A stretch of DNA of 64,000 nucleotides from an uncultured Verrucomicrobiae bacterium (GTDB taxonomy: Bacteria; Verrucomicrobiota; Verrucomicrobiia; Chthoniobacterales; JAFAMB01): assembly GCA_963813025.1 (NCBI GenBank), contig CAWEXO010000002.1, forward strand, positions 32,001 to 96,000. Direction: 5' to 3'. The position numbers and the translations under genes are program-made. Under the pieces are notes generated by a model that saw nothing but the letters and a program-made list of their open reading frames with translations, made no database searches and had not been told where the DNA came from. This document shows, piece after piece, positions 7,386 through 45,584 of the stretch (its first letter is position 1; each line of letters opens with the position of its first letter).

Positions 7386-7939
7386 TTATATCACCCCCTC
7401 AACGTAACCGTTCGCGAACACTTTACCCTCCCGCACTTCCAGACCGACTCTTGGCAATGGACGCCGCGGCGGACCAGCCACCGGTTCCCCGTTCCGAATG
7501 TCGAACCAGCCTTCGTGGCAGGGACAGTGCATTCGCCCCAAATCGGGCCTGGGCAGGACAGGGCACGAAAGGTGAGTGCATTTTTGCCCGAACGCGACAA
7601 AGCTCGATCAGAAAGCCGGACAAGGATGCAATGGTTGCCTGGCTTCGGAAATTCAAAAAGCTTTGATTGCCCGACCGCCAATTCGTTCACCGAGGCAATC
7701 TCCTTTACGGGAGGCGTTCCAGCCTCTTTTCTCCAGGCTTGGATCAGCAGGATCCAGCACTGGCCCGCGACAAAGGCTGCACTGGTCAACATGAGAAAGA
7801 GGACGAACTCACGTCGCGATCGATATTCGTCCTCCGGCCAATCAAATGGAAAATCCCTGCGCCAAGTCGGCTGATCTTTTGCCGGCCGGCCATCTGGGGC
7901 GGTTGAGATAACCTCCGAATCTTCGTCAGGTAAAGGCAT
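7386..7939 (-). CDS. membrane-anchored Rieske 2Fe-2S protein (frameshift near 7604)
   Basis: SRREF plus TM helix; after a frame change reads [14 protein letters not shown]...[10 protein letters not shown]...GPPRRPL, stop TAA 7386-7388. Confidence 0.85.
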
Positions 7940-8987
7940 CTTCTGAGTCCATTCCATCCAGCAACAGATCATCCTCGATGACATTCCCGATCGTCGGCTG
8001 GTGCATGGCCGAGAGCACATCAAGCTGTTCTGGAACATTATTCTTGGGCACAAGCATTCGCGTACGGGTGGTAATCGTTTGCGCACCAAACTGAAAGGTA
8101 TTGACCGGAGCAGACTTCGGGCGCAACCGGGTGATTTCTTCTTCCGTGCCGAAGAACAGAGCCTGGCTCGGGCACACAGATGCGCACATCGGCAGTTTTC
8201 CGATCGAAGTACGATCGTAGCATTGGTCGCACTTCATCATTAACTCCATGCGAGTGTTCATCTTTGGAATACCGAAGGGACAGGCCAGAACACAGTTGTT
8301 GCAGGCGATGCAGCGCGGCTTCCTTGCCGATTGCACCACGCCGTCGCCCGTACGCTTGATCGCATGGGCGGGACAGACTTCTGCGCATGTGGGCGAGTCG
8401 CAGTGCATGCAAACGACTGGCACGGTCTGCGTCGAGTTAGCCCGATCGTTCTTGTTTCCGGCACCGGCGCTCACCATACAAAGTCGGCCATTGTAATCAA
8501 TACAAGGTGTTTTCAAACAGATCCGGGCGAACTTGCCCATCAGATAACACTTCTCGGTCGTCAGGCTCGCTCCGCTCAGAGTCGCAAAGGCCTTCGGGCC
8601 GTACGTTGTCTGAACGCGGTCGATCTCTTCCGCAACTTTTCGGATAGCCTCGTCATAGGGTACTGGACTAAACCCATGCGGATTTCTCGAGTCCCGTTTG
8701 TAGGCGTGCAGCAGACGATCCGCATGCGCACCCTGTAAATAGCGTTTTACGCCTTTTGGGCACAGTTTCCCTCTGTTGAACGGGAAGTCGTACCAAGGTT
8801 CATATCCAATCACCTGATTGTCCTTCACCAAGAGTTCGATTCCGCATTGCTGCCCGCAAAAGCAGCAGTGTGTTTCCACTGCTTTATCCGGCACAACACC
8901 GGCATCCAATCGCATTCCAGTCGATCTCGAAAGATGCGGGCCGAATTGTTCTGTAATCGATTCAGGTTCTACAACAACTGTGGCCAT
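7926..8987 (-). pseudogene. in-frame fusion of N-terminal fragment of a molybdopterin oxidoreductase to C-terminal part of a 4Fe-4S dicluster subunit
   Basis: [11 protein letters not shown]...KLCPKG and [16 protein letters not shown] run directly into [26 protein letters not shown]...[12 protein letters not shown]...KCDQC...CASVCP; junction about 8450. Confidence 0.8.
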
Positions 8988-14038: not shown

Positions 14039-15433
14039 ATGAGCTATGAATACCAACTGATTGTAATTGGATCGGGATCCGGCGGAAAGGACGCTGCAAT
14101 TCTCGCGGCGCGCTCGGGCCTCCGTGTCTTGATCGTCGAAAGAGAAAGTCTTGGCGGGACCTGCTTTCATCGAGGTTGTTACGCCATCCGAGCTCTCCGC
14201 GCGTGTGCCATGCATTATGGAAAGACCGAAGGAAGTTCCCGTTTCGGGATGTCGATTGACCTCCTGGAAACCGGATGGAGCGACTGGATTGGCACGCAGA
14301 GGCGCGTGAGTGCCAGGCTCACCGAAGACCTTAGTCGAACCTTGGAATCACTCGAGGTGAACATCCGTTTCGGAACCGCAAAGCTCCTCAATCCGAACGA
14401 AGTAGAAATATCCGATCCCTACGGCGCTCGGGAGCGAGTTTCCGGACAGAATATCATCATCGCGACCGGCTCGCGCCCAGCTTTCTCGAGCGGCCAAAAC
14501 TCGAAGATCCTGAACTCCGACCGAATGCTTAAAAACGTCGCAGTTCCGGCGCATCTGCTGATCATTGGCGGAGGCTACATCGGCTGCGAATTCGCCTCTA
14601 TTTATCGAACGCTGGGAGCACGAGTGACTCTGGTCGAGGAGCAGGAACATTTGCTTCCGAGCTGGGACCGGATCGCCGGCGATCAAATCTGGGATTCGTT
14701 AGAAAAACAAGGTGTAACCATTCATCTGAACGCTAAAATCGATCTACCCGATGCAGAAACGTGGACTGCACGTCCGCTCTTCAATCTGCGCGACAGCACG
14801 ATCGTTTCCCCTGAGCTCACGCTGATCGCGACCGGCCGTAAACCAAACATCGAGGAACTAGGACTGGAATCGGTCGGGATCACCGCAAAGGCATTCATTC
14901 CGGTCAACGAAACGATGCAGACGGCGCAGCCAAACGTCTTCGCGATTGGCGACGTGAATGGGCTGGCGATGCTTGACAGTGTGGCTTTCGCCCAAGCCAG
15001 AGTCGCCGTTCAAACTATCCTGGGCAACCCAGCTCGGTTTGATTATCGCTGGATACCACGATGCGTTCATACCGATCCACCGGTCGCCTCTGCCGGATGG
15101 ACGGAAAAAGAGGCTATCGCCGCAGGCCATGAGATCGGAGTGCTGACCGAAACGGCGCGACTGATGACGGAAGACGACCGCAGCGTCGTTGATCCCGAGC
15201 CGATAAAGCTCAAGCTCGTTGTTCTGCCGGAAACCAGAGCCTTACTAGGTTGCCAGGCTGTCGGCGCCGAGGCAGCCGAAATCGTGAATCTGGCGGCCGC
15301 GGCTCTCCATGCTGGATTAACTGTGACCGATCTTGCGGACCTCGCGATGATCCATCCAAGCGCTTCAGAGGCGCTCGTTCGGTGTCTGCAAAGTCGTTTC
15401 GATATGCCCGCAAGATCTACGGTAGCGCGGTGA
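14039..15433 (+). CDS. dihydrolipoamide dehydrogenase-like flavoprotein disulfide reductase
   Basis: GSGSGG, intact GGTCFHRGC, GGGYIG, ATGRKPN, C-terminal HPSASE. Confidence 0.88.
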   Translation: MSYEYQLIVIGSGSGGKDAAILAARSGLRVLIVERESLGGTCFHRGCYAIRALRACAMHYGKTEGSSRFGMSIDLLETGWSDWIGTQRRVSARLTEDLSRTLESLEVNIRFGTAKLLNPNEVEISDPYGARERVSGQNIIIATGSRPAFSSGQNSKILNSDRMLKNVAVPAHLLIIGGGYIGCEFASIYRTLGARVTLVEEQEHLLPSWDRIAGDQIWDSLEKQGVTIHLNAKIDLPDAETWTARPLFNLRDSTIVSPELTLIATGRKPNIEELGLESVGITAKAFIPVNETMQTAQPNVFAIGDVNGLAMLDSVAFAQARVAVQTILGNPARFDYRWIPRCVHTDPPVASAGWTEKEAIAAGHEIGVLTETARLMTEDDRSVVDPEPIKLKLVVLPETRALLGCQAVGAEAAEIVNLAAAALHAGLTVTDLADLAMIHPSASEALVRCLQSRFDMPARSTVAR

Positions 15434-16500: not shown

Positions 16501-16784
16501 TGTTCGGCTACGAACCCATCGTACCAAGGGTCATTGCACTTCCTCGTTCCGTTCTTGCTCTTCAGGTATGCCTCAGGAGTTCTAAACCTAGCTTAGCTAG
16601 TGGCTCGTTTGGGCAAGGCGCGCCATTAGGGCTTGCCGTGTATTCGGGCCATTCCGGATCGCAAGAATCGCGGGTGAGGAAGGCGTCCGACCCGGACCAA
16701 CCCATGTTCAGCATTGACCAATTTCTGCACGGCACGCGCAAGCGGCCGGCTCTAGAGATTAGAGCAGATTTCTGGATAACAAAG

Positions 16785-17714
16785 ATGGAGTCCTACCCGA
16801 AATTTTCTCCTTTGGATGCCGTCCGTAAACACGACTTTGTAGAGCAGCTCAGTCGTGCGCGAATATACCAGGATTACGAGCTGGCCTTTGGAAAGACAAC
16901 GAAGTTACCTTTGGAACTCTCCTCGATTCACGCACCGTGGACGGTCCACCGCGGACGAAGCAAGTTCACAAACCCTTTCTGCACCGTCCTCGCACGAACG
17001 AGCAAAAATTGCGGCAGATGCCTAGAGCTCCGGCGAAACCTCACCAGCGCAAATATTTCGGAAACGCAGACAGCGAGATGCTTCGTCGGACTTACAAATA
17101 CCGCCGTGCCAGTGAAGGTGGAAGAGCGCGTCATTGCGTTTTTGCAAACCGGCCAGGTTTTCCTGCGAACACCGAGCGCGCAGCGATTCAAAAAGATTAC
17201 TACCAAGCTCATGAGTTGGGGCATGAAGACTAACTTGGCCCGACTCGAGAATGCGTATTTCCACTCCCGCGTGGTTTTGCCCAGCGGATATCGTGCGATA
17301 GTGCGACTTCTGGAAATTTTCGCGGAACATCTCGGATTGATCGCCAACGAGATCGCGCTGCAGCAAGGTAACGGGGACTCGCTGATGATCAGACGCGCGA
17401 AACATTATGTTGCGAGTCATCAATCTGATCCTATCACACTGGGACAGATCGCTCGTGCCCTTAATATCAGCACGTTCCACTTTTGCAGGATATTTAAGCA
17501 GACAACAGGTCTAACGTTTGTGGAATACTTGAGCCGCGTCCGTATTGAGCGGGCTAAAGTCTTGCTGCATAAAAATGATCTACGCGTCAGCGAGATAGCG
17601 TACGAGGTAGGGTTCCAATCGATCACCCACTTCAACCGGATCTTTCGCAAGCTTGTTGGTCACTCGCCGACAGAATACCGCTCCAGATTGGCCAGAGCCA
17701 ACCCAGAGGGATAG
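16785..17714 (+). CDS. AraC-family regulator with PocR-type ligand-binding domain
   Basis: NPFC...C..C, CFVGLTNTAVPV, LQTGQV; C-terminal double HTH (SEIAYEVGFQSITHFNRIF); start could be upstream (to 16638). Confidence 0.9.
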   Translation: MESYPKFSPLDAVRKHDFVEQLSRARIYQDYELAFGKTTKLPLELSSIHAPWTVHRGRSKFTNPFCTVLARTSKNCGRCLELRRNLTSANISETQTARCFVGLTNTAVPVKVEERVIAFLQTGQVFLRTPSAQRFKKITTKLMSWGMKTNLARLENAYFHSRVVLPSGYRAIVRLLEIFAEHLGLIANEIALQQGNGDSLMIRRAKHYVASHQSDPITLGQIARALNISTFHFCRIFKQTTGLTFVEYLSRVRIERAKVLLHKNDLRVSEIAYEVGFQSITHFNRIFRKLVGHSPTEYRSRLARANPEG

Positions 17715-18054: not shown

Positions 18055-18387
18055 ATGAAAATCATGAATCGGCCGGGTTCATTGAAACCGCGACTCCTCG
18101 TTGGGATCGGCCTTGCAGTGATTGCTGCGGTCATTTGCACAGTGTGTGTCCCCTTCGTTTCTGCGGGTCCGCCCACTACACCGGAGAAGCCGGTACAAAC
18201 GAGTACGGCTTCTGGTGCCGCCTTATACGCCATCCACTGCAGCCGCTGCCACGCGGAACGATATGCCACCGAATTCACAGCGGCCCATTGGAAGACCATC
18301 ATGATCCACATGCGTGTGCGGGCAAACCTCCCGGCGGCGCAAGCTCAGGAGATCCTGAAGTATCTTCAGGAAAATAGCGGCCAGTAA
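18055..18387 (+). CDS. small exported monoheme cytochrome c
   Basis: Hydrophobic signal, CSRCH, WKTIMIHMRVRANL. Confidence 0.85.
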   Translation: MKIMNRPGSLKPRLLVGIGLAVIAAVICTVCVPFVSAGPPTTPEKPVQTSTASGAALYAIHCSRCHAERYATEFTAAHWKTIMIHMRVRANLPAAQAQEILKYLQENSGQ

Positions 18388-18406
18388 TGAGCGACTAAAT
18401 ACATCG

Positions 18407-19888
18407 ATGGACATTCGCTCCAGAATCCTCGGAATGATAGCGGCAGGATGTGTGCTCGGAATCACCTCGCCCCGCGCCGTTGCAGAGGTAACTGACGAAG
18501 AGTTCAATGCGTTGAAAGAATCGGTCCGGCAGCTGGGTGATAAAGTGCAGAAACTGGAGGAGACGCACGAGCAAGACCAGCAAACTCACGCGCAGGACCA
18601 ACAGAAAATCCAACAGCTGCAACAGCAGCTGGAGAAAACCCAAGCGACGGCCGCTGAAGCGCAGCAGAAAGCCAAGTCTGCGACCCAGGTCCAGCAAAAG
18701 TTCCACTGGCTCGAAGATCAATTGGGGGAAACGCGCAAGACCGCCGCCGAGGCTGAACAGAAAGCCGAAGCGGCGGCTCAGGTGCAACCGGTTGCCCCGG
18801 TTCCCAGCGGAGCCCTGGCGACGCACAGCTTCACCCTGGCAGGAGACGCGGAGGTCCAATTTGGCAAAGTCCAGGGACAGCACAGCGCATTTATGCTAGC
18901 GGATTTTGCGCCGATCTTCCTGTTTCGGGCGACCGACAAGGCTCTATTTGAAGCGGGTTTTGATGTCACGTTGTCGAACGGCGCAGTGACGTTGGCGAAC
19001 GGACAGACGGGCAATAGCGGTGTTTCGACCGCAGTAGATCTTAGTTTCGCTCAATTGGATTACCTGCTGAATGACTATGCGACGGTTGTGGCCGGGTATA
19101 TGCTGCTTCCGCTGGGCACCTATACCGAGCGATCGGCCGGGTGGCTGAACAAGATACCGGATGACCCGCTCCCCCGCGATATCCTGCCGACCAACGGCGC
19201 AGGTCTCCAGCTGCGGGGGGGCATACCTATCGGGCAATCCGGACAGTCGCTCACCTATTCCGGTTTTGTCGTCAACGGGCCAGGCTCAGCGGACGGGTCT
19301 GGAAACGCAACTTTCGTTGATAGCAGCGGCAACGTATTGCCAAATCTTGACTTTGGTAATGTCGGCACTCAATCCAATGGCAATAGCGGAAATTTGCACG
19401 CTAATCCCTCCGGCGGTGGCCGCATCGGGTGGTTCTTTCCGCTTAAAGCCAATTATGATTTCGAGCTTGGAGTTTCGGGCCAAACAGGTCCATGGAACGA
19501 CGCGGGAAATCGGCTGTGGTCGGCTGCCGTTATCGATGCGGCCCTGCACATTACTCCGTTTTTCGAATTGAAGGGGGAGTATATGTATACTTGGCAACAG
19601 ACCAACAACAGGGGAACTGTTCAGCCGCAGGGTTGGTGGGTCCAGGCAGCCTACAAGCTGGCAGGCTTTAGCCTGAGCCTCCCGCTCATTAACAACGTCG
19701 AGTTGGTCGGCCGCTATGACACGGTGTTGGACGGGCTCGGGACGAGGACTAACCGGGAAACGGTGGGTTACGTATACTACATCACCAATACGCTCTTATT
19801 CGAAGGTGCTTACGAATGGTTGCAAAGCCACGGGCCAAACAAGCTGCCGGAAAACAAGTGGGTGTTTCAGCTCTCCCTCGGATTCTAA
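18407..19888 (+). CDS. outer-membrane beta-barrel (porin-like) with N-terminal coiled coil
   Basis: Signal peptide ending RAVA, Q/E/K-rich helix, alternating beta-strand pattern, terminal VFQLSLGF. Confidence 0.8.
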   Translation: MDIRSRILGMIAAGCVLGITSPRAVAEVTDEEFNALKESVRQLGDKVQKLEETHEQDQQTHAQDQQKIQQLQQQLEKTQATAAEAQQKAKSATQVQQKFHWLEDQLGETRKTAAEAEQKAEAAAQVQPVAPVPSGALATHSFTLAGDAEVQFGKVQGQHSAFMLADFAPIFLFRATDKALFEAGFDVTLSNGAVTLANGQTGNSGVSTAVDLSFAQLDYLLNDYATVVAGYMLLPLGTYTERSAGWLNKIPDDPLPRDILPTNGAGLQLRGGIPIGQSGQSLTYSGFVVNGPGSADGSGNATFVDSSGNVLPNLDFGNVGTQSNGNSGNLHANPSGGGRIGWFFPLKANYDFELGVSGQTGPWNDAGNRLWSAAVIDAALHITPFFELKGEYMYTWQQTNNRGTVQPQGWWVQAAYKLAGFSLSLPLINNVELVGRYDTVLDGLGTRTNRETVGYVYYITNTLLFEGAYEWLQSHGPNKLPENKWVFQLSLGF

Positions 19889-19913
19889 ATCAATGAAATG
19901 GTGATCTATAACA

Positions 19914-20360
19914 ATGAACATCAAGCTATCTACTGTCCTCCTGGGTGCGGCCGCATTCGGCCTGATCGGAGCAGGATTGGCGCTCTCCCAGGCCGTTGAC
20001 ACTCGGATTGAGCAGTTCGACAAAGGCCCGGCGACGATCAATGTCTCCGGGTACCCGCCAGCAATCCAGGGATATTACGCAGTCTTTACCCAGAAGTGCT
20101 CCCAGTGCCACAAGTTGAGCCGCCCGATTAACTCTGATTTTGTGCTGCCCGATGAGTGGTCGCGCTACATCCACCGCATGATGAGCAAGCCCGGTTCGGG
20201 TATAGATAGCGCCTCGGGCGCGCAGATTTACGCATTTCTGGTGTACGACTCCAGCGTCCGCAAGAAGGCGATGCTTGACGCAAGGCTCGCGAAGCTCTCG
20301 CCTGCCGAAAGGGCCGCTGTGGAAGCCAAGATCAAGGCAGTCGTGGCCAAGTATAGGTGA
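19914..20360 (+). CDS. exported monoheme cytochrome c
   Basis: Signal peptide, KCSQCH, WSRYIHRMMSKPGSGI. Confidence 0.85.
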   Translation: MNIKLSTVLLGAAAFGLIGAGLALSQAVDTRIEQFDKGPATINVSGYPPAIQGYYAVFTQKCSQCHKLSRPINSDFVLPDEWSRYIHRMMSKPGSGIDSASGAQIYAFLVYDSSVRKKAMLDARLAKLSPAERAAVEAKIKAVVAKYR

Positions 20361-20381
20361 CGCGCTCCAGGGTTCGCTAGC

Positions 20382-20855
20382 GTGGAAGAACTGGCTTCAT
20401 CCGCGATGGCTCCGCGCTCACGTCGCGATTTCATCGCCAACATCTTTCTGAGCACAGGAACGGTGCTGGGGCTGGGGAGCTTGGCCTATCTGTTCCTCGA
20501 ATACCTTTATCCGGTCGTCCCGCCCATCAAGCTCGTTGAGGTGCCGGCGGGAAAGCCGGACGACATTCCACCCGACGGCGTGCGGCTGGTTCAGTTGCCG
20601 GAAGGACCAGTCATGCTGGAGAAAGGGGAGAACAAAGTTCGCGCCTTCTCCGCCATTTGCACGCACCTGGGTTGCACGATCCAATGGCATCCGGAGAAAA
20701 GACAATTCATCTGCCCGTGTCATCAGGGGATTTATGATTTCAATGGCAATGTCCTGTCCGGTCCGCCCCCGCGCCCGTTGGAGAAACTCCCGGTAAAGCT
20801 GCGTGACGGTCAGGTTTTTGTGCTCGTGAATTCGCTTAAAGAGGAACACCTATGA
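20382..20855 (+). CDS. Rieske subunit of a Rieske/cytb complex
   Basis: Tat-like SRRDF plus TM, CTHLGC, CPCHQG, GPPPRPL. Confidence 0.92.
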   Translation: MEELASSAMAPRSRRDFIANIFLSTGTVLGLGSLAYLFLEYLYPVVPPIKLVEVPAGKPDDIPPDGVRLVQLPEGPVMLEKGENKVRAFSAICTHLGCTIQWHPEKRQFICPCHQGIYDFNGNVLSGPPPRPLEKLPVKLRDGQVFVLVNSLKEEHL

Positions 20856-21886
20856 GGCGTGCGGTCCGCTGGATTGAAGAACGGATTCCGGTGGATCACG
20901 AAATCGTGCGCAAAAAGTTGCGCGAACCGTTGCCGGTTCACATGAAAAGCTGGATTTTCTGCCTGGGCGGAACGCCGGCCATGCTCTTTTGCATCCTGGC
21001 GGTTACCGGAATTCTTCTGACGTTTTACTATGTCCCCTCTCCCGCTCAAGCCTACGCCAGCGTGAGCAATATCAGCTTCAAGGTGCGCATGGGCTGGTTT
21101 GTCCGCGGCATACATCAAGGAGCATCCCAGTTGATGATCGTGACCGTGCTCCTGCACATGATCCGCGTCTTCTTCACCCGTGCCTACCGTAAGCCGCGGG
21201 AGCTCAACTGGATGTGGGGCGTGGCACTTTTCTTCGTCACCCTGACATTCGCGTTCACCGGATACTCGCTCGTTTACGACCAGCTTTCTTATTGGGCCAC
21301 TACTATCGGGACCAACATGATTGCGGCAGTGCCGCTGATCGGCGAGCCGTTGCTCTACCTGCTGCGTGGCGGCCCCAACGTGAATCCAAACACCCTCAGC
21401 CGCTTTTACGACTTTCATATCGGGGTGCTGCCCACGATGATGACGCTGCTCATTGTCGGTCACCTAGCCCTGGTGCGCTTGCACGGCGTGGCCCCGCTGC
21501 GTGGCGATCCGCGCCGCGAAACCTATCCGTTTTTTCCTGATCACATGCTGCGAGAAGCGATTATTGGCCTGCTCCTCCTGGTTTGCCTGGTTAATTACGT
21601 CAATTTTTTTCCTCCCTCGGTCGGGGCGCCGGCAACGCCGGGCAACACCCCGGGACACATCCGTCCGGAATGGTACTTCTTTCCAACCTACCGCTGGCTC
21701 AAGCTGACGTCCCTGCCCGTGGGAATCGGAGGAAGCATCCTCTTCGTCGCCTGCCTTTTTCTGTGGCCATTCATTGACGCCGCGCTGGAAAAAATCGCGC
21801 CTCGGAAGGGTTTGTGGGTGATCGTAGGGAGCGCGTTTTTCCTATTAACCATCGTCTTTATGCTCTGGGAAGCCATTGCTGGTTGA
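20852..21886 (+). CDS. cytochrome b (b6-like, subunit IV fused) of a Rieske/cytb complex
   Basis: WIFCLGG, four heme His (GIHQ...LLHM, DFHI...VGHL), YRKPRELNW, PEWY; ATGA overlap with Rieske gene. Confidence 0.93.
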   Translation: MRRAVRWIEERIPVDHEIVRKKLREPLPVHMKSWIFCLGGTPAMLFCILAVTGILLTFYYVPSPAQAYASVSNISFKVRMGWFVRGIHQGASQLMIVTVLLHMIRVFFTRAYRKPRELNWMWGVALFFVTLTFAFTGYSLVYDQLSYWATTIGTNMIAAVPLIGEPLLYLLRGGPNVNPNTLSRFYDFHIGVLPTMMTLLIVGHLALVRLHGVAPLRGDPRRETYPFFPDHMLREAIIGLLLLVCLVNYVNFFPPSVGAPATPGNTPGHIRPEWYFFPTYRWLKLTSLPVGIGGSILFVACLFLWPFIDAALEKIAPRKGLWVIVGSAFFLLTIVFMLWEAIAG

Positions 21887-21901
21887 ACGGGGACGCGCTC
21901 G

Positions 21902-22384
21902 ATGAGTATCATTACTCAAAAATATCTGGTTGGAATTATGGGGTTAATCCTGGTCGGATCGGTCATCGCCACCGGTTATCTGGATTCTCAACGCCGTAAA
22001 AGAGAGAATGTCCCGGGCGCTTCAGAAGCCTCGCCGCCCGCGGCACCTCTCACTCCCGAGCTGCAGCACGGGTTGAAGATTTATGTGGAATTCGGTTGCG
22101 AGGCCTGCCATGGAGTGGGCGGCAAAGGTGGTGTGCACAATTTCAACGCCCAGAGCGGACAGGCGGTCCCCCCGCTGAACCACGTGGCCGACGGCTATAC
22201 CAAACCCGAACTGATCGCAAAGATCCAAACTGGCGTTCCTGTCGAGCCGAAACTAGATCCGAAGGGCCCGGAGCCGCCATTACACATGCCCGGTTTCAAG
22301 GATATGCTTACTCAGGACCAATTAAACGATCTGGTCGCTTACCTCTTCAGCCTGAAACCCAAGGGAGAAGAATCCGGTTTCTAG
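21902..22384 (+). CDS. membrane-anchored monoheme cytochrome c
   Basis: N-terminal TM, CEACH, LHMPGF distal Met candidate. Confidence 0.88.
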   Translation: MSIITQKYLVGIMGLILVGSVIATGYLDSQRRKRENVPGASEASPPAAPLTPELQHGLKIYVEFGCEACHGVGGKGGVHNFNAQSGQAVPPLNHVADGYTKPELIAKIQTGVPVEPKLDPKGPEPPLHMPGFKDMLTQDQLNDLVAYLFSLKPKGEESGF

Positions 22385-22466
22385 CCCATGTTTCCCAGCC
22401 GAGATGCAGGCGTAGGTTCCCGCGGTCTTTCAGTTAAATATATCTTTGTAAGACGCGACTGATCGC

Positions 22467-24373
22467 ATGAAAAGGTTTTTCCCCTGGGTCATCAGTCTTA
22501 TTTTTTTGCTTTGGGCCATCACCAAGATGATGCCGGTCAAGCAACCGTCCGGTTTCGACCTCGACGGGTTTGGTCGGCTCCCGATATTGGTCAACGGCCG
22601 GGTGATGCCGATGGATACATTGGCTCGCGTCTCGCTGTTTGCCATGAATCACCACGGGACATGTACGGCCTCCGATGGTAAGAGCCAGCCGCAGCGCGAG
22701 TGGTTGCTGGATGTTTTCATGATGCCCGAGCGAGCGGATCTCGCAAAAGTGTTTGAAGTGACCAATCCCGATATTCTCGATCTCTTTGGCTGGCAGGAAG
22801 CGAAAGGCAAATCGAATAACTACTCGCTTAGCGACCTCGAACCATTCTTTGGCGAGATTGAAAAACAGGCGGACTAGCCGCGCGAACAGAAGCTGAAACC
22901 CGTAACGCCTTCCAGAGGGCCATCCTCAGACTGCGGGATGCCTTGGGTCTATACATTGAGTTGAGAAATACAGTTCAGCCCGACGACTCGGCCGATTTTG
23001 GAAAAGAAATTCAAACGTTCAGCTCAGTAATTCAACCCGGCATGCAGGCCATTCGCGACAAGGAGGCGAACAAGGCGTTTAACAGCCAGGATTTGGACCG
23101 CATTCTTTTGTTCACGCAACGCTACCGGAAACTCGGTCAGGTCAAGTACGCCTATGCGATCCCGAATCCGAACGGAACGGCAGGCGGTGACCGGTGGCAG
23201 CACATTTCGTTTGCACTGCTCAGCGCCATCACCTCGGGAAAGCTGCCTTATCCAGCCACGATCTATGGACGTCTCATCTCAGCTTATCGAAGCGGAGATA
23301 CACAGGGATTCAACCAAGCCATTAGGGAATATAATCAGTATCTTGGGCAAACGACCCCCCAGTACCTGACTCGGCCTCATCTCGAGTTCTTCTTTAATCA
23401 AGCCCAGCCATTCCCCCAGACGATGGTTTTGTATATGGTTGTCTTTGTTTTGGCTCTGGCCTCTTGGCTGAAGTGGCCGAAAACTCTGGGGAAGACTGCT
23501 GCTATTCTTCTTCTATTCGCGTTTCTCCTTCACACTGCGGGGCTCGTCACAAGGATGTATTTGCAGGGCCGGCCGCCAGTCACTAACCTGTACAGCTCCG
23601 CAATTTTTGTCGGATGGGGAGCAGTTCTTCTCTGCCTGTTCCTCGAACGCTTCTACAAGAACGGAATTGGCAGCGTGTGCGCTTCTGCAATCGGTTTTGT
23701 GACCTTGTTGATCGCTCAAAACTTGCAAGTCGATGGCGATAGCCTCGAGATGTTGCGCGCTGTGTTGGACACAAACGTCTGGCTTGGGACTCACGTCGTC
23801 ATGGTGACTCTCGGCTATTCTGCGACATTTCTCGCCGGATTTTTGGGAATCATTTACATTTTTCGCGGCCTGCTGACGAAATCCTTCGATGAGATGACTG
23901 CAAGATCGCTCGGACGCATGATGTACGGAATCGTCTGTTTCGCTACTTTGTTCAGCTTCATTGGTACGGTGCTTGGCGGTATCTGGGCTGATCAATCCTG
24001 GGGACGGTTTTGGGGTTGGGATCCAAAGGAAAATGGGGCGCTCCTCATTGTGATTTGGAACGCGATTATTTTGCATGCACGATGGGGTGGCTACGCCCGC
24101 GAACGAGGTGTCGCGGTTCTGGCGGTATTTGGCAATATCATAACCAGCCTATCATGGTTTGGAGTCAACATGCTGGGCGTCGGTTTGCATTCCTACGGCT
24201 TCATAGATGAGGCGTTTGGACCGCTCCTGGTTTTTATCCTTAGCCAACTCGCCATTGTCGGTCTGGGGATACTGCCGCAGAAATACTGGCGCGGGATTCA
24301 GGCGCGCGTAAAGCCCATCGGCATGGGGCAGCCCGACGCGATGTTGGCGGGGAGTGCCGTGCCGAAACACTGA
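22467..24373 (+). CDS. ccsA: system II cytochrome c biogenesis protein CcsA (frameshift near 22873)
   Basis: GRLPILVNGRVMPMDTLAR N-domain; WADQSWGRFWGWDPKE; GVGLHSY; one added base near 22873 joins the two ORFs via LAARTEAETRNAFQRAIL. Confidence 0.88.
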
Positions 24374-24564: not shown

Positions 24565-25053
24565 TCATTTCAGTTCCTCACATCGAACAGTGGCGTCGGT
24601 TCGTATCGGAAAGTTCATCGAATTCGCTAAAAAACATCTGCGATGCGCTTCTTCATGAACTTCAAGGGCCTTGCTTTTGTCGGACGTCGAGGAGATCACG
24701 ACTTCCGGTCTTAGAACGACGCTCTCGAAGTAGCCGCCTCCGGCTTCGACCTCAACCATGATCCCATTCGGGCGATCTTCATAGGCGACCACTCTGATCC
24801 CTCCAGTAGCGCACAAGTGCAAATACCAGAGCATGTGGCACGACGATAACGCCGCAACCAACATCTCCTCGGGGTTATAGCGCTGAGGGTCTCCTCGAAA
24901 AGCGGGATCAGACGAACCGGGCACAACCGGTTTCTGAGCAGACAACACCTCGAAATTTCTCGAATAAGCTGTGTATGAAGAGGATCCCGAGCCGAGGTTT
25001 CCCACCCAACGGATCCCGACTACATAAGAATGGCGTTTCTCAGCGGTTTTCAT
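24565..25053 (-). CDS. OsmC-family protein
   Basis: GSSDPAFRGD, NPEEMLVAALSSCHMLWY, AHRRCFLANS. Confidence 0.92.
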   Translation of the reverse strand: MKTAEKRHSYVVGIRWVGNLGSGSSSYTAYSRNFEVLSAQKPVVPGSSDPAFRGDPQRYNPEEMLVAALSSCHMLWYLHLCATGGIRVVAYEDRPNGIMVEVEAGGGYFESVVLRPEVVISSTSDKSKALEVHEEAHRRCFLANSMNFPIRTDATVRCEELK

Positions 25054-25402: not shown

Positions 25403-26887
25403 ATGAGTGAGATCCTTCGGCTGAGAAATATTTCGAAGACTTTCCCGGGGGTGCTGGCGCTGCAGAACATTTCTTTCGACTTGAACGAAGGCGAGGTGCA
25501 TTGCCTTTGCGGTGAAAACGGAGCAGGCAAGTCAACCCTGATCAAAATTCTCTCGGGCGCATATCAACCGGACGAAGGCGGAGAAATCATCTTCCGCGGC
25601 AAAAAGGTCGCCCTGAATCCGCATTTCGCCATGTCGATTGGCATCCAGACGATCTATCAGGAACACGTCGTTTTCGACAATCTGAGCATCGTGGAGAACA
25701 TCTTCACCGGGTCAGAAATCGTGAGACGGGGTTTTCTGCAGAAAAAAGAAATGCGCCGTCAGACTGCCGAAGTTCTCAAATATCTGAAAGGCAATCTAAG
25801 TCCGGACAGCAAACTAGGCGAACTCAGCAGTGGCGAACAAAAAACGGTCGAGATTGCTAAAGGCCTCGTGTTCAAAAGGCAGGTGATCATCCTGGACGAA
25901 CCGACGGCATCCTTCTCGTCAACTGAGATTGATAACCTCCTGGACATCATTCAGACGGTCAAGAAAACTGGGCTCGGGATCATTTACATTTCGCATCACT
26001 TGGAAGAGGTCTTCAAAATCGCAGACCGGATCACCGTGTTGCGCGACGGACGCAAAGTCAGCGCCTACGACATAACCGGCCTCACGAAGAATACTCTGAT
26101 CAAAGACATGGTCGGCCGCGACCCCTCTACATTCTATCGTCGCGAACGGGTACCGATCGGAGAAGTCGTTTTCGAAGCCCGAAGCGTTTCCGGGAACGGC
26201 GCAAGAAATATCTCATTCGTCCTTCGAAAAGGAGAAATCCTCGGGATCGCCGGAATGGTGGGATCGGGCCGCTCCGAGCTTATGAACGTTCTGTTTGGAA
26301 GTGCTCATCTCGACTCCGGCGAAATCCTGATCCGCGGCAAAGCGATTAAACATTCCAATCCGATGTCGGCCATCAGAAACAAAATGTGTTTCATAACCGA
26401 AGACCGGCAAAACACAGGCCTTTTTCTTCCCCAGACCATCGCGCAGAATGTAACCGTCGCGAACCTGGTGAATACTCGGGCATTCGTGGTCAGGCAGGCC
26501 GACGACTGGAGGACAGGCGATCGATTCGTCAATCAACTCAATATTAAGGCCAGGGACTCCCGGACGCGCGTCGTAAACCTTTCCGGCGGCAACCAGCAGA
26601 AAGTCGTACTCGGAAAATGGTTTAACACGAACGGTGAAATCTTCATATTCGATGAACCGACCCTCGGCATCGATGTCGGCTCCAAACAGGAGATTTACAA
26701 GGTGATGGTTGACCTCCTCAAACATGGAAAAGCCATCATCATGGTGTCCTCCGATATGCCCGAAATCATCTCCATGAGTGACCGGGTGATTGTCATGAAG
26801 CACGGTCAAACAGCAGCCGAACTGACGACGGAACAGATTACGGAGGAAAACATCCTCACCCACTCGATCGGTGACAAAGCAATATGA
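25403..26887 (+). CDS. sugar ABC transporter ATP-binding protein (RbsA/MglA type)
   Basis: GENGAGKST, ILDEPT, LSGGNQQK, two ABC domains. Confidence 0.95.
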   Translation: MSEILRLRNISKTFPGVLALQNISFDLNEGEVHCLCGENGAGKSTLIKILSGAYQPDEGGEIIFRGKKVALNPHFAMSIGIQTIYQEHVVFDNLSIVENIFTGSEIVRRGFLQKKEMRRQTAEVLKYLKGNLSPDSKLGELSSGEQKTVEIAKGLVFKRQVIILDEPTASFSSTEIDNLLDIIQTVKKTGLGIIYISHHLEEVFKIADRITVLRDGRKVSAYDITGLTKNTLIKDMVGRDPSTFYRRERVPIGEVVFEARSVSGNGARNISFVLRKGEILGIAGMVGSGRSELMNVLFGSAHLDSGEILIRGKAIKHSNPMSAIRNKMCFITEDRQNTGLFLPQTIAQNVTVANLVNTRAFVVRQADDWRTGDRFVNQLNIKARDSRTRVVNLSGGNQQKVVLGKWFNTNGEIFIFDEPTLGIDVGSKQEIYKVMVDLLKHGKAIIMVSSDMPEIISMSDRVIVMKHGQTAAELTTEQITEENILTHSIGDKAI

Positions 26888-28029
26888 GTGACGACAACTC
26901 TCCGGCGTTCCCGCAGCAGGCCCGAGCGCAACAGAAGCATCGGCAGGCCGGTTCTATTTTCGAGAGGCACGAGAACTTCACGGTCCTCTCGATCTTTGTC
27001 GGGTTTGTGATGGTTATAACCATTCTGCAGCTGATCATGTGGGGCGGCCAGAAGTTCCCGACGTTCATCACCCCGGTGAACCTTTTAAACATCCTCCAGC
27101 AGGTGGGGGTCCCCGGGATTGTGGCCGTCGGCATGACGATCGTGATGATCTCCGGTGGGATCGATCTTTCGGTGGGAATGCTGGCTTCTCTGGTCTCCAT
27201 CGTAACCGCGCTGGGCATATCGAAATGGCACTTCGGCGTCGGTCCTTCAGTCCTTCTCGGAATCGTATCGGCGGTCGTGCTGGAGACGGTGATGGGTTTC
27301 ATTATTTCCCGTACCAAAGTTGAACCCTTTATCATTACCCTGGGCGGGATGATCACTTTTCAGGGAATCGCGCTTCTTCTCTGCAATTCCCGCGAGGTAA
27401 TCATGAATGGGGAGCTCGATTTTCTGAAGGTTAACCTCATCTACGGAGCAAAAGATCCGATTAGCCATCTCAACCTGATCATCCCCCCATACGCCCTGAT
27501 ATTTTTCGCGATCGCTTTCCTGGCCGGCTTGCTCCTGAATTACACCAAATACGGCCGCAGAATCTACGCTGTCGGGACCAACCCGAACGCAGCCTACCTG
27601 GCGGGCATCAACGTCCAGAACATGAGACTCTCGGTCTACATTATCATGGGGGTCCTGGTCGGGATCGGCGGTGTTCTGCTTCTCGCCCGGGTCAATACTG
27701 GCATCATCACGCTCGGGCAGGGCCTGGAAATCGACAGCATCGCCATGGTCGTCATCGGCGGCACCGCGCTAAGAGGTGGCAAAGGAAACATCGTAGGAAC
27801 GTTGATCGGAGTCTTCTTTCTCGGGTCGATCGGGAACGCGATGAATATGTTGCGGCTGCCATCTGAAGTGCAATTCGTCGCCAAAGGGCTCGTCGTCATT
27901 ATCGCGGTTTCCGCCGGCGACGTCTCCTCCAGAATTTCCGGGTTTTTATCAAGGAGGAGAGAGCTGCGATCGGGCGCGGCGCAGACAACGCTGGGGAAGA
28001 AAGGGATAACAGTGGAATCGACCAAATAA
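26884..28029 (+). CDS. sugar ABC transporter permease
   Basis: GGIDLSVG, GRRIYAVGTN, IAMVVIGGT. Confidence 0.95.
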   Translation: MSDDNSPAFPQQARAQQKHRQAGSIFERHENFTVLSIFVGFVMVITILQLIMWGGQKFPTFITPVNLLNILQQVGVPGIVAVGMTIVMISGGIDLSVGMLASLVSIVTALGISKWHFGVGPSVLLGIVSAVVLETVMGFIISRTKVEPFIITLGGMITFQGIALLLCNSREVIMNGELDFLKVNLIYGAKDPISHLNLIIPPYALIFFAIAFLAGLLLNYTKYGRRIYAVGTNPNAAYLAGINVQNMRLSVYIIMGVLVGIGGVLLLARVNTGIITLGQGLEIDSIAMVVIGGTALRGGKGNIVGTLIGVFFLGSIGNAMNMLRLPSEVQFVAKGLVVIIAVSAGDVSSRISGFLSRRRELRSGAAQTTLGKKGITVESTK

Positions 28030-28093
28030 TAAATCAGTTATTGTAAACAAATCACGTGAGATGCACAAAGACGATCAGAGGAGGAGCAACGTA

Positions 28094-29188
28094 ATGAAGC
28101 GTTTGCATCTAGTATTGACAGCTGGCTTCGCGGTATTGGGAGCCACGAATTTGACGGCCACCACCGCGCACGCCGCAGATGCCGGCAAAGGCAAAGTTGT
28201 CGGATATTACATGGATGCCGCCGATGACTACTACAAAGCGGCATTTCAGGTATTCAAAACGCTCGGTAACAAAGCCGGTTGGCAGGTTTTGGATGTCGTT
28301 GGACAAGGAACTGCTCCGGAACAGGTTGCCGCGGTTGAAAACTTCATTACCCAGAAAGTCGACGCAATCGTTGTCGTTCAGAATTCACCACAGACAACGT
28401 CCGAATGTCTGAAGAAGACTCATGCCGCCGGGATCCCGGAATTTCACACATCTCATAAACCGCCGATTGAACCGGGACTGGCCGGCTTTACCACATTCGA
28501 CTTTGTCGCAGACGGCGAACTCGCCGGACAATCGGCAGCAAAACATGGGGTTAAAAGGGTGATCATGATTGAAGGCAAACTCGGTCAAGGCAGCGCGGCC
28601 GGTCAGACCCAGGGTTTTCTGCAAGGATACAAAAAGGCCGGCAAAGATATCGGCAACCTTCTCGATAGCGTCGGCGTCAGAGGCGCCGGCGGCAAAGATC
28701 TGCAAGTCGTCTTCTGGGGATCCGGCAATTGGTTCGCGGATCCAGCGAAAAAAGTGATGGAAGATGCCATCACAAGCCTCGGACCAGATGGCTTTGACGG
28801 CGCCTACGTGCAGAACGATGAAATGATGACCGGCGCATTGCAGGCCATGGAAGAAGCAGGGCTCGACTCGAGCAAATACTGGCTCGGGTCCAGTAATGGC
28901 AAAGAAAAGTCCTGGGACTGGGTAGAAAAAGGCAAAACCACGATGGACGTCAACCAATGCCCTACCCTCGAAGCGGATATCCTGTTCCAGCAAGTGAGCG
29001 CCTACTTCGACAAAAAGCCCTATAAGAAAGGGGTCTTCGTAAACTTTACCGCGTTTGAGAAAGACACGCTCGACAAGAACAAGATGATCCCCTGGATCCT
29101 CAACGATTACATGCAGAAACGCGCAGCGAACGCATTCAACCACGATATTAACGATCCCGCCTTCCGGGCGGATCCGGAATTTCAATAG
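28094..29188 (+). CDS. sugar ABC substrate-binding protein 1
   Basis: GAGGAG RBS, signal peptide ending AHA, RbsB-like motifs (QVAAVENFITQKVDAIVV, VQNDEM). Confidence 0.9.
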   Translation: MKRLHLVLTAGFAVLGATNLTATTAHAADAGKGKVVGYYMDAADDYYKAAFQVFKTLGNKAGWQVLDVVGQGTAPEQVAAVENFITQKVDAIVVVQNSPQTTSECLKKTHAAGIPEFHTSHKPPIEPGLAGFTTFDFVADGELAGQSAAKHGVKRVIMIEGKLGQGSAAGQTQGFLQGYKKAGKDIGNLLDSVGVRGAGGKDLQVVFWGSGNWFADPAKKVMEDAITSLGPDGFDGAYVQNDEMMTGALQAMEEAGLDSSKYWLGSSNGKEKSWDWVEKGKTTMDVNQCPTLEADILFQQVSAYFDKKPYKKGVFVNFTAFEKDTLDKNKMIPWILNDYMQKRAANAFNHDINDPAFRADPEFQ

Positions 29189-29241
29189 GAGTTATAAAGA
29201 AAGACAAAAAAGTTGCCCTCAAACGGCTAAAGATAAAGCAG

Positions 29242-30330
29242 ATGAAACGTTTGGTATTATTGTTAACAGGTTTGGTTTTTCTGGGAACCGTGAGCTTCCC
29301 AGGCGGGAGCACGCAAGCCGCGACCGGGAGTAAAAAGGTCATCGGCTATTACATGGACGCGTCGGATGACTACTACAAGGCAGGCTTCCAGGTATTCAAG
29401 GCGCTTGCCACGAACGCGGGCTGGGACGTGCTGGATGTTGTGGGACAGGGTACCGCTCCCGAGCAGATCGCGGCTGTCGAAAACTTTATCACCCAGAAGG
29501 TCGACGCAATCGTGGTCGTGCAGAACTCGCCGGCGACCAGCTCCGAGTGCTTGAAAAGGGCTCACGCCGCGGGCATCCCCGTCTTTCACCTCACGCATAA
29601 TCCGCCCAACGAGCCGGGCTTGGCCGGCTTTGCCGGATTTGACTGGGTCTACGACGGAGAGCTTGCCGCCCAATCGGCCATGAAACACAACGTCAAGAAA
29701 CTGATCATGATCGAAGGAAAGCTCGGTCAGGGCACTGCGGCCGGTCAAACCCAAGGCTTCCTTCTGGGCTACAAGAAGGCCGGTAAGGATATCGGTAATC
29801 TTCTTGATAGTGTCGGGGTAAGAGGCGCCGGCGGCAAGGATCTGCAGGTGGTCTTCTGGGGTTCCGGCGGTTGGTTCGCGGATCCAGCCAAAAAGGTCAT
29901 GCAGGACGCGATCACCTCATTAGGCCCAGACGGCTTTGATGGTGCCTACGTCCAGAATGATGAAATGATGACCGGCGCTCTTCAGGCCATGCAGGAAGCC
30001 GGTCTCGATCCGAGCAAATACTGGCTTGGGTCAAGCAACGGTAAGGAGAAATCCTGGGATTGGGTGGCCAAAGGGTTGACAACTATGGACGTTAATCAAT
30101 GCCCAACCCTCGAGGCCGATATTTGCTTTCAACAGATCACCGCCTATTTCGCCGGAAAGCCTTACAAAAAGGCCGTCTTCGTAAACTTCGTTCCGTTTGA
30201 GAAAGATACGCTCAACAAGACTGCAATGATTCCCTGGATCCAGGCGGATTACATGAAAAAGCGGGCCGCCAATGCTTTTAAGTACGACATCAACGATCCC
30301 GTGTTTCGGGCCAATCCAGCCTACCAGTAA
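29242..30330 (+). CDS. sugar ABC substrate-binding protein 2 (paralog of 1)
   Basis: Signal peptide; colinear with protein 1. Confidence 0.9.
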   Translation: MKRLVLLLTGLVFLGTVSFPGGSTQAATGSKKVIGYYMDASDDYYKAGFQVFKALATNAGWDVLDVVGQGTAPEQIAAVENFITQKVDAIVVVQNSPATSSECLKRAHAAGIPVFHLTHNPPNEPGLAGFAGFDWVYDGELAAQSAMKHNVKKLIMIEGKLGQGTAAGQTQGFLLGYKKAGKDIGNLLDSVGVRGAGGKDLQVVFWGSGGWFADPAKKVMQDAITSLGPDGFDGAYVQNDEMMTGALQAMQEAGLDPSKYWLGSSNGKEKSWDWVAKGLTTMDVNQCPTLEADICFQQITAYFAGKPYKKAVFVNFVPFEKDTLNKTAMIPWIQADYMKKRAANAFKYDINDPVFRANPAYQ

Positions 30331-30501
30331 TTCTGTAAAACTTACGTCCCGGCACATACATCGACGAGTTGATCCGTTCGAGCCGCGAAAGTATTCCCAA
30401 CTTTCGCGGCGGCAACGAATCGTCGCTCGCTCTGTGCGCCCAGTTGCTTTTGATCAATTTAGAAAAGATTATGTCATCGATTGTTTTGGAGGTGTTCTAA
30501 C

Positions 30502-31518
30502 GTGAAAATAAGTTCCCCTTGTTACGTCCTGCTGTCTCTCGCGGCTGCTGCCCTTCCGCTCACCGGCTTGGCTGCTCAAAAAAATCTAACCTTCGGTTAT
30601 ATCACTCCTGGTCCGGACACCTGGTATAAAAGAGATGTCGATGGTTTTGTCCGGGCGGCCAATATGCTCGGCATAAAGACCATCGTTCTGAACTCAGACT
30701 ATGATGCGCAAAAAGAGGTTTCGAACATTGAGTCGCTGGTGACCCAAGGCGTCGACGGAATGGCCATTTTTTCTTTTAACCAGCAGGGCGCCATCACGGC
30801 CGCTAAGAAATGCCAGGACGCGCACATTCCCCTGGTGACCGTCGATAATTGTGGTCAGGCTCTGAAAAGCGGCACTGATATCGTCGCCGCGATCGATTTT
30901 GATTGGAAAGCAATGGGTAATAATTATGCCGAATACATCGCCCAAAATTACCCCGGCAAGAAGGTCGCTTTAATTACCGGGCTGCTCGAACACCTGCCCG
31001 TACAGCTGATTACCGGCGCCATGAAGCAGCGGATGAAAGAACTTGGGAAGAATGAAATCGTCGCGGTTCGAGATGGCAAATATAACCCGTCTGTGGCGGT
31101 CAGTCAGGCCCAAGACCTGATCCAATCCGGCGTAAAGTTCGATATCCTCTGGATTATGAACGAGGATATGGCCGCCGCGGTCATTCGCTACCTGAAGAAC
31201 CAAGGCATGTTGGACCAGTATATTGTCATGGCTCAGAACGGATCGCCGGTGGGTATTCCGCTCGTCCAGGACGGTGAGCTCAACTACACCATCAGCAGTT
31301 CACCCGGTTGGGAGGGCATGGTGGCCTTACTGGCTCTTTACCAGCATGTGTCCGGTAATTCGAAAACTACCGGTCAACAAATCATGTTGCCGGTCATCCC
31401 CGTAACCAAAGGAACGATCCTCGACAAAAAACAGGTGGTTCCCTGGGAATATGACCCGGTCTGGATCGAATTAACCAAGCAATACTTCCCTAAACTGGGT
31501 GCTCACTTACCTGGGTAG
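30502..31518 (+). CDS. sugar ABC substrate-binding protein 3
   Basis: GGAGG RBS before GTG 30502, signal peptide, IESLVTQGVDG, IMNEDMA. Confidence 0.88.
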   Translation: MKISSPCYVLLSLAAAALPLTGLAAQKNLTFGYITPGPDTWYKRDVDGFVRAANMLGIKTIVLNSDYDAQKEVSNIESLVTQGVDGMAIFSFNQQGAITAAKKCQDAHIPLVTVDNCGQALKSGTDIVAAIDFDWKAMGNNYAEYIAQNYPGKKVALITGLLEHLPVQLITGAMKQRMKELGKNEIVAVRDGKYNPSVAVSQAQDLIQSGVKFDILWIMNEDMAAAVIRYLKNQGMLDQYIVMAQNGSPVGIPLVQDGELNYTISSSPGWEGMVALLALYQHVSGNSKTTGQQIMLPVIPVTKGTILDKKQVVPWEYDPVWIELTKQYFPKLGAHLPG

Positions 31519-45179: not shown

Positions 45180-45409
45180 ACCTCTCTTGGGTTAGATGTT
45201 GTTCTTGCTTTCACACTGCAGCGCATCGGCCCGAGTTGGTAGATAGAGAGAAATCTCCTAAACAGGATAGCTCCAGATCGGCAAACAACCCGATCTGGAG
45301 CTTCGCTAATGCAACAACCAAAACGCTCGGAACCAAACTAGCTATCGGGCATAAAGCTCCAATGCCACACCGGTCTTAACTGCCGACCCACTGCTGCCTA
45401 CTTTCTACG
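45180..45409 (-). ncRNA. candidate IS110 bridge RNA
   Basis: Lies upstream of the transposase; 13-bp stem AGCTCCAGATCGG/CCGATCTGGAGCT; internal 13/14 match to the element end. Confidence 0.55.
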
Positions 45410-45533
45410 TCGAGATGCCCAAGGCAATCAATCCAGTGTTTCTTGCCGCAAAAAGAACGCGCAGAGTTCTGGGGAACTAGCTAGATTATCGAGGCGAAGG
45501 CAGCGCTCCTTTTTTTGCATTCCCAAAAGGAAA

Positions 45534-45561
45534 ACCCGCCTCAGAGCCAACTGAGGCGGGT
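45534..45561 (-). terminator. intrinsic terminator of small lipoprotein gene
   Basis: 11-bp stem ACCCGCCTCAG/CTGAGGCGGGT, then TTTCCTTTT on the minus strand, just after the stop. Confidence 0.75.
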
Positions 45562-45584
45562 ACAATTCTCCTAGGGTCGAAACC

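Follow-up and report, generated by a model that had tools for sequence, protein, structure and literature searches.

We analysed a 64,000-nucleotide stretch of DNA from an uncultured Verrucomicrobiae bacterium (the window), which is part of contig C2 of a 4.42 Mb genome that is 80% complete. Between positions 18055 and 24373 it encodes an outer-membrane porin, three monoheme c-type cytochromes, a Rieske/cytochrome b complex and a heme lyase, in genes here numbered g1 to g7. With the regulator gene upstream, the features are as follows.

16638–17714, + strand: PocR-sensor/AraC regulator (Pfam PocR, HTH_18); start codon uncertain.
18055–18387, + strand: g1, exported monoheme cytochrome c of 110 amino acids with heme motif CSRCH, an invariant HMR motif and a DHC/SorB/PscC-like fold.
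18407–19888, + strand: g2, outer-membrane porin of 493 amino acids with a signal peptide and an acidic lumen, ending in LSLGF (terminal Phe).
19914–20360, + strand: g3, exported monoheme cytochrome c of 148 amino acids with heme motif CSQCH, a homologue of the PscC (cytochrome cz) heme domain.
20382–20855, + strand: g4, Rieske [2Fe-2S] protein with a Tat-like motif (SRRDFI) and the boxes CTHLGC and CPCHQGIY.
20852–21886, + strand: g5, cytochrome b of 344 amino acids with His88, His102, His189 and His204, FCLGG, and PEWY at residue 272.
21902–22384, + strand: g6, membrane-anchored monoheme class I cytochrome c of 160 amino acids with heme motif CEACH and a single N-terminal hydrophobic segment.
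22467–22877, + strand: 5′ piece of g7, a CcsA-type heme lyase gene, 136 amino acids, ending at TAG.
22877–24373, + strand: 3′ piece of g7, with the CcsA/Cytochrom_C_asm domain (WADQSWG..WGWD; PF01578, 91 bits against a cut-off of 29.9).

The gaps from g1 through to g7 are 19, 25, 21, −4, 15 and 82 bp. An earlier annotation, hereafter the sequence-only reading, had described seven co-oriented genes less than about 85 bp apart; six are intact, with gaps of −4 to 82 bp, and the seventh, ccsA, is frameshifted. Its description of the CSRCH and CSQCH cytochromes, the barrel ending in Phe, the Tat Rieske protein, the PEWY cytochrome b and the anchored CEACH cytochrome was confirmed in the sequence, as was its statement that the g1–g7 unit holds no terminal oxidase or catalytic subunit. 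The products of g1, g3 and g6 each contain one CxxCH motif and none has a lipobox; g2 is free of CxxCH. The g1–g6 order is identical in five relatives and the g1–g2–g3 order in seven, so that the arrangement exceeds chance by far. A scan for promoters and terminators gave counts at chance level (4 versus 3.6; 12 versus 8.4).

The most constant feature of the locus is the pairing of porin and g1. Searches with g2 scored 8000 candidates, 1674 of them proteins matching at E 0.001 or better, and gave 215 confirmed matches in the genome collection, of which the best 80 supply the locus statistics below. Nearly all of these 80 come from uncultured Verrucomicrobiota; five carry non-verrucomicrobial labels, which we do not trust, and searches aimed at other phyla gave only loci already found, so that no cross-phylum claim is based on them. 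Distribution is patchy, a single porin query finding the porin in 4 of 401 genomes of a phylum sample. The g1 gene adjoins the porin in 73 of the 75 loci with both flanks, and in the remaining two its domain lies inside a diheme protein encoded by the next gene downstream. Adjacency is equally tight in a distant metagenome clade found via g1 (73 of 74 loci). When the two genes were searched for separately in 43 family genomes, g1 lay within 300 bp of the porin in 13 of 14 places, the fourteenth being a contig end, and the two g1 matches without a porin were the weakest. These porin–g1 loci are kin, and hence not independent of one another.

The pair also occurs, at about 24% porin identity, on plasmids of the Gammaproteobacteria Alteromonas, Glaciecola and Legionella, among them plasmids of the cultivable marine species Alteromonas macleodii. 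On Glaciecola and Alteromonas plasmids (L105:7929–9649; L106:7917–9625) the porin and a g1-containing diheme stand between copC/copD and hydrogenase maturation genes. Natural fusions occur in the family. An N-terminal class I heme domain is joined to the barrel in 3 of 269 homologues (P0181, P0250 and P0252), and in one further homologue of the 269 (P0258) the fused g1-like domain has lost its CxxCH. On a Legionella anisa plasmid (L107:4675–8861) the barrel carries three heme domains, and genes for a g1-containing diheme and a triheme come next. When longer forms of g1 were sought, the ordinary full-length protein dominated the results, which have no bearing on fusions.

Searches of PDB, Pfam and NCBIfam with the single g2 sequence returned no porin name, and its coiled-coil matches (XopZ, SMC and FUSC) were rejected as compositional. 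A profile of 87 diverse homologues, however, matches OprP (E 5.9e-9) and OprO (E 2e-7), and 29 of the 87 match Pfam Porin_O_P. The AlphaFold2 model of g2 has a mean predicted local distance difference test score (pLDDT) of 74.7, mostly above 80 in the barrel, and shows a long N-terminal helix followed by 16 long strands (residues 141–492), with an invariant loop-3 segment (residues 234–254) and loop 3 inside the lumen. Its best fold match is OprP (2o4v; VIA Z 26.6, root-mean-square deviation (r.m.s.d.) 4.8, 308 residues aligned). The 50 fold matches listed for the model include no cytochrome-bearing barrel, which does not exclude that one exists. We therefore predict that g2 is a 16-strand porin of the OprP/OprO type. 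Whereas OprP has an arginine ladder, the conserved lumen residues of g2, assigned by hydrophobic alternation, are mostly acidic (15 acidic to 6 basic in 69 aligned rows). A modelled barrel of this class is too narrow for an MtrB-like chain of cytochromes, and because it has only 16 strands an Mtr-type heme wire is not expected. The sequence-only reading had proposed a trans-envelope path to an extracellular or porin-imported partner such as a metal or humic quinone; with a single docked heme predicted not to span the barrel, a wire reaching solid metal or humic particles is not supported.

The fold of g1 matches 2fwt (Z 6.2, r.m.s.d. 2.2, 56 residues aligned) and SorB (Z 5.8) with middling scores. 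Its invariant motifs are CxRCH and HMRxR, and CxxCH and HM are present in 69 of 69 aligned rows, which were chosen by that motif. Prediction of a complex of barrel, heme and g1 core gave a score of 0.90, with 0.00 for the best of three controls, and therefore supports binding of g1 to g2. The runs share at least 84% of their contacts, with partner pLDDT of at least 82. As modelled, g1 touches g2 where strand 1 begins, at the short turns and within the loop-3 segment ERSAGWL (E241, R242, W246 and L247), and interface positions of g2 are conserved above other barrel positions (0.89 vs 0.73). By standard porin topology these positions form the periplasmic mouth, where g1 would accordingly dock as a plug. 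In the predicted complex His66 of the g1 CxxCH motif touches L247 of g2, and His85 packs against the barrel wall. Since His85 is so placed and Met86 lines up with the methionine in the g3/PscC motif, Met86 is likely to be the distal axial ligand of the g1 heme. Near-invariant adjacency, natural fusions and the predicted complex all uphold the earlier suggestion that barrel and small monoheme cytochrome belong together, and taken by itself the porin–plug pair is probable.

Behind the porin lies a putative relay. The g3 profile matches the PscC heme domain (3a9f) at E 1.2e-4, and g3 is a distant cousin of g1. It comes after the porin in 59 of 77 loci or more, as the 300-bp search distance missed g3 in L040 and L049. 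Wherever g3 is present with 5.5 kb of downstream sequence (48 of 48 loci), a g6-like domain comes after it, and this holds in all architectures. We infer that g3 is a periplasmic shuttle and that g6 is both its partner and the equivalent of cytochrome c1. The products of g4 to g6 show the traits of a b6-like Rieske/cytochrome b complex: the Rieske boxes, the Tat motif, four heme-b histidines, PEWY and a partner cytochrome c, with the b6 part of g5 fused to a subunit IV part. The FCLGG motif of g5 is presumably the heme ci site. A Rieske/cytochrome b complex of menaquinol type lies in the unit, in line with the quinol:cytochrome c oxidoreductase that the sequence-only reading had placed there.

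The inner-membrane half of the system is interchangeable, and its Rieske/cytochrome b genes, found within 5 kb of the porin in 33 of 59 loci, are a common but optional partner. The 80 loci divide as follows.

Type I (the form in the window): 6 of 80 loci.
Type II, with a 640-residue FAD/FeS NAD(P) oxidoreductase, another Rieske/cytochrome b and a hexaheme protein ending in a g6 domain: 35 of 80.
Type III, without a bc complex, in which a homologue of an oxidase-operon cytochrome c has the g6 domain fused behind it: 19 of 80.
Other loci free of bc genes: 13 of 80.
Loci too short to type: 7 of 80.

Types II and III interleave on the porin tree, along which the inner-membrane partner changes often; this was a quick, midpoint-rooted tree of 69 of the 80 rows, from which no order of events is claimed. 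Type II (for example L020:8208–13275 and L113:5289–10380) is the commonest partner of the porin–plug pair in Verrucomicrobiota, and a type II and a bc-free copy coexist within one assembly in two cases (L032 with L053, L044 with L051). Many type III and some type II clusters lie between the riboflavin synthesis genes ribBA and ribH, often upstream of ctaA, ctaB and cox (L039:7853–13079; L048:7840–19056), ribH being present in 13 of 19 type III loci; the rib location may merely be an insertion site. Directly upstream of g1 at L054:7754–9235, L097:7632–9104 and L086 are genes for a hexaheme of NapC/NirT type and for a small cytochrome c, together a possible alternative link to the quinone pool. 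At L089:3487–9045 and L116:2728–7475, genes for 9-heme and 7-heme proteins and a probable barrel of 667–734 residues adjoin the porin–plug genes, placing two candidate electron-transfer systems side by side.

The last gene of the cluster is broken in this assembly. The product of g7 has the WWD-type Cytochrom_C_asm domain of the system II heme lyase CcsA, and PF01578 scores above its cut-off. Near position 22871 the gene has one base fewer than its relatives, which splits it into two frames; ccsA is a single open reading frame of 634–663 amino acids in four of four relatives checked. An assembly error is plausible because other genes of the assembly are also in pieces, a real lesion being the alternative; the single DNA read set examined gave no coverage at the break. 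Frame-broken respiratory genes lie at C14:370452–375967 and C2:125497–126549, namely cox1 (three pieces, on C14), a cytochrome b and a subunit of alternative complex III. A broken ccsA also occurs in one relative (L017:7283–8561), and both assemblies may be indel-prone. Contig C14 of the same genome carries an intact ccsA paralogue of 656 residues, and a third copy (C13:430664–431890), 74% identical and without the N-terminal part, lies near transposase-like genes. As ccsA lies downstream of the cluster in only 5 of the 49 loci with 9 kb of downstream sequence, the earlier description of a dedicated system II maturase was overstated.

We favour a reading in which the cluster would act as a redox gate rather than as a wire across the envelope. 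Menaquinol would be oxidized by the Rieske/cytochrome b complex, and electrons would pass from there to g6, then to g3 and finally to the g1 plug, where a small dissolved metal cation or chelate that has entered the pore would take up one electron at the heme. The likeliest acceptor would be an Fe(III) species, because the lumen is acidic and the hosts live in soil. The Q-cycle would conserve energy, and the cluster would then be a complete respiratory branch of its own, an alternative route for soil in which redox conditions fluctuate. That menaquinol is the donor, that the substrate is a cation and that flow is outward are all proposals, and the whole mechanism, from outward flow to the reduction of a small dissolved cation at the pore, is a tentative one that falls just short of what we would call probable. 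A gene for futalosine-type menaquinone synthesis is present in the genome. Outward flow is favoured because the complex runs downhill from quinol, because neither RuBisCO nor a homologue of the type II NAD(P) oxidoreductase was found in the 80% complete genome, and because several oxidases and two alternative complex III clusters of their own lie elsewhere in it. With those present, a private Rieske/cytochrome b complex fits a need for quinol-derived electrons.

Several points weigh against this mechanism. The absences are weak because the genome is incomplete, and ccsA is broken in the window assembly. The score of the predicted complex is a model confidence from a set of partners that did not include g3, and its calibration, in which 116 of 157 solved pairs and 2 of 215 mismatched pairs reach the score mark, is only rough here, with our own alignments and a heme riding along. 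Assignment of the g2 lumen by alternation is ambiguous for some strands, and some of the acidic residues may serve just to bind the basic g1. Unlinked porin and Rieske/cytochrome b genes in other genomes, which the sequence-only reading had named as evidence against itself, were found in part: the link is missing in 26 of 59 loci, and none of the 80 distant-clade loci, many of them short, has a Rieske or cytochrome b match. In all 19 type III loci the relay ends on a homologue of an oxidase-operon cytochrome c, and 12 of these loci also have ctaA and 7 have cox1; this fits inward flow. Several distant porin–plug copies lie among copper-resistance genes. Finally Cyc2, the closest structural analogue, oxidizes Fe(II).

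The last points lead to the strongest rival, in which the same porin–plug gate works inward and oxidizes dissolved Fe(II) or Mn(II) in the manner of Cyc2. From g1, electrons would then run through g3 and g6 to heme-copper oxidases elsewhere, or uphill via Rieske/cytochrome b to menaquinone (to NAD(P) in type II). The chief reason to consider this is the oxidase-type end of the type III relay near ctaA and cox. It is also suggested by the Cyc2-like architecture (16 strands, an OprP-like barrel and a periplasmic monoheme plug, according to the accessible part of 10.1101/228056), by a lumen acidity resembling the Asp sites of Cyc2 as the available portion of PMC13741234 gives them, by the FAD/FeS NAD(P) oxidoreductase of type II, by the coexistence of type II and bc-free copies in some assemblies and by the several oxidases of the genome. 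In the window locus itself, however, an oxidase link is lacking, as are ctaA and cox1 in all six type I loci; there is no NAD(P) oxidoreductase, RuBisCO was not found in the genome, an uphill branch would be of little use to a heterotroph, and the Cyc2 motif occurs in 0 of 69 g1 rows. We consider inward flow unlikely in the window cluster, if a serious contender.

A different use of the gate would be the handling of metals or oxyanions, as has been proposed for ExtI of Geobacter: a solute such as copper, selenite or tellurite would be redox-changed at the plug for uptake or detoxification, with little energy conserved. In the Geobacter ext cluster Rieske and cytochrome b genes accompany an OprP-like porin, and the part of PMC5877670 available describes effects on selenite and tellurite reduction and none on Fe(III) citrate. 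The best NCBIfam match of g5 is ExtP, at 222.8 bits, below the cut-off of 290, and the neighbours of distant porin–plug copies are copC/copD or efflux genes, or else YHS and DUF2231 genes. Against this, ExtI has no match in the genome and a single weak one among 87 family members, an acidic lumen disfavours oxyanions, the cluster has no rhodanese or multiheme partner, and the genes that recur around the 80 close loci included no resistance genes. This explanation strikes us as improbable. Still less credit goes to the idea that g2 is an ordinary solute porin with the heme plug as its redox-controlled gate or sensor, the respiratory genes merely setting the redox state of the plug. The heme-less fused domain of P0258 and the frequent change of inner-membrane partner speak for it, but a whole Rieske/cytochrome b complex with up to six further hemes would be excessive for gating, and the heme motif and HM do not vary among the g1 rows. 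Least credible of all is a conduit of Mtr/Pcc type with cytochromes stacked in the barrel to reach solid minerals, humic particles or electrodes: cytochromes do flank the porin, hosts, judging by the titles of their records, come mostly from soil and peat assemblies, and L089 and L116 adjoin multiheme-barrel clusters, but g2 has 16 strands with loop 3 in its lumen, the cytochromes are monohemes without a lipobox, g1 contacts are confined to one mouth, and the genome has no MtrB family match.

The regulator gene upstream likely controls the porin cluster; a homologue stands upstream in 29 of the 70 loci with a 2.6 kb flank. Its PocR domain, here as in relatives, contains several cysteines (FC..C..C..C), and homologues adjoin NrfD-type genes at L024 and L115. 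That the domain senses redox state or a metal is a guess. An OsmC gene at 24565–25041 on the minus strand marks the end of the cytochrome cluster. Beyond it, at 25403–31518, lies what by eye looks like a sugar ABC transporter cluster, in which three binding-protein genes follow one another; four transposase-like open reading frames within 2575–5403 and 43788–47463 were likewise recognized by eye. Two similar pyridine nucleotide-disulphide oxidoreductase genes lie 13 kb apart at 507–1934 and 14039–15433. Between them are a Rieske-like match (7413–7595, minus strand), a piece that we take to be molybdopterin-enzyme-like (7926–8987, minus strand) and what is presumably a phosphoenolpyruvate carboxykinase-like gene.

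Seen across all loci, the system could be a second, independently evolved family of Cyc2-like gates, made of an OprP-type barrel and a separately encoded heme plug of DHC/SorB fold, with interchangeable inner modules (Rieske/cytochrome b, an anammox-like NAD(P)-linked Rieske/cytochrome b, or an oxidase-type cytochrome) and spanning soil and peat Verrucomicrobiota and some Gammaproteobacteria. We regard this combination as possible, and not far from probable. If true, the family escapes both Cyc2 and multiheme screens, abundant soil heterotrophs would be able to respire or oxidize iron or manganese in dissolved form, and NAD(P)-linked Rieske/cytochrome b complexes would have an extracellular partner for their high-potential branch. 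Because screens for extracellular electron transfer seek fused Cyc2 or multiheme cytochromes beside porins, a two-gene monoheme gate would be missed. Should Fe or Mn be turned over at the gate, a lineage common in soil and peat would contribute to metal redox cycling in a way so far uncounted. Compared with Cyc2, a split and soluble plug lends itself better to expression, titration and mutation, making testable the model in which the substrate enters the pore.

Among known systems, MtrAB, MtoAB, PioAB, Pcc, PCC3 and PCC4 resemble the cluster in placing a porin gene next to exported c-type cytochromes and an inner-membrane, quinone-reactive part, but as described in the accessible part of PMC5566968 they use multiheme cytochromes and large Mtr-like barrels. 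An MtrB-type barrel has about 26 strands rather than the 16 of g2, PF11854 has no match in the genome, and in MtrAB, MtoAB, PioAB and Pcc a multiheme cytochrome threads the barrel whereas g1, g3 and g6 are single-heme. The EET3 and EET4 systems of peat Verrucomicrobiota share host phylum and habitat with the cluster (10.64898/2026.05.27.727921, in the part available); the EET1–4 systems of that preprint have 8–13 hemes, and Rieske, cytochrome b and monoheme go unmentioned in its main text. Its supplements might list a cluster of the window type. The porin–cytochrome systems of lake Verrucomicrobia are multiheme too, by the available part of PMC6344600. Anammox Kuste4569–4574 and Kustd1480–1485 recall type II relatives in their b6-like Rieske/cytochrome b, FAD/FeS NAD(P) oxidoreductase and hexaheme; the type I cluster of the window lacks the NAD(P) oxidoreductase and the hexa- or octaheme subunit. 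The accessible part of PMC12954380, the source for these complexes, describes no porin–plug, and type II parallels them in layout.

The Geobacter extHIJKLMNOPQS genes come closer in content, a phosphate-porin-like barrel, c-type cytochromes, Rieske and cytochrome b sharing one cluster (PMC5877670, again in part). There, however, the cytochromes have 4, 5, 10 and 12 hemes and a rhodanese is included, in place of the three monohemes of the window; no counterpart of the multiheme ExtKL, ExtM, ExtN and ExtS or of the rhodanese ExtH is among the window cluster genes. ExtI (NF040900), without a match in this genome, is matched by 1 of 87 family members at E 2.9e-5, and g5 falls below the ExtP cut-off with its subunit IV fused. 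The sequence-only reading had called the whole the best candidate in the window for an undescribed system: a porin with Rieske and cytochrome b is known from ext, which that reading did not name, and the novelty lies in the split porin–plug pair, of which no description was found in a literature search that took in neither subscription papers nor preprint supplements.

The closest mechanistic parallel is Cyc2/Cyt572. In the accessible parts of 10.1101/228056 and PMC13741234 it shares with g1–g2 a 16-strand OprP/OprO-like barrel (for g2 by model), a single c heme that is predicted to plug the barrel on its periplasmic side (for g1 a side taken from porin topology) and acidic pore residues, with a substrate that must be dissolved and enter the pore. 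By the same argument from barrel width, the former source arrives at a Cyc2 pore about 3.5 Å wide that is plugged where it opens to the periplasm, and according to the latter no Cyc2 structure has been solved. In Cyc2 the heme is fused N-terminally to the barrel, whereas here it is borne by the separate gene g1. The Cyc2 motifs AXPXFAR[QK][TY] before and PXL after CxxCH are found in none of 69 g1 rows, and the FAR motif is also missing from the three fused porin homologues. The g1 plug is instead DHC/SorB/PscC-like with an invariant His-Met, g2 has a long N-terminal helix, and the window unit includes a Rieske/cytochrome b complex. The g1–g2 pair is predicted to work like Cyc2 and yet falls outside the Cyc2 family, being unfused, without its motifs and of another cytochrome fold. 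The cluster is a conserved variant of the cytochrome–porin idea, apparently undescribed, in which the split pair has good support from structure prediction.

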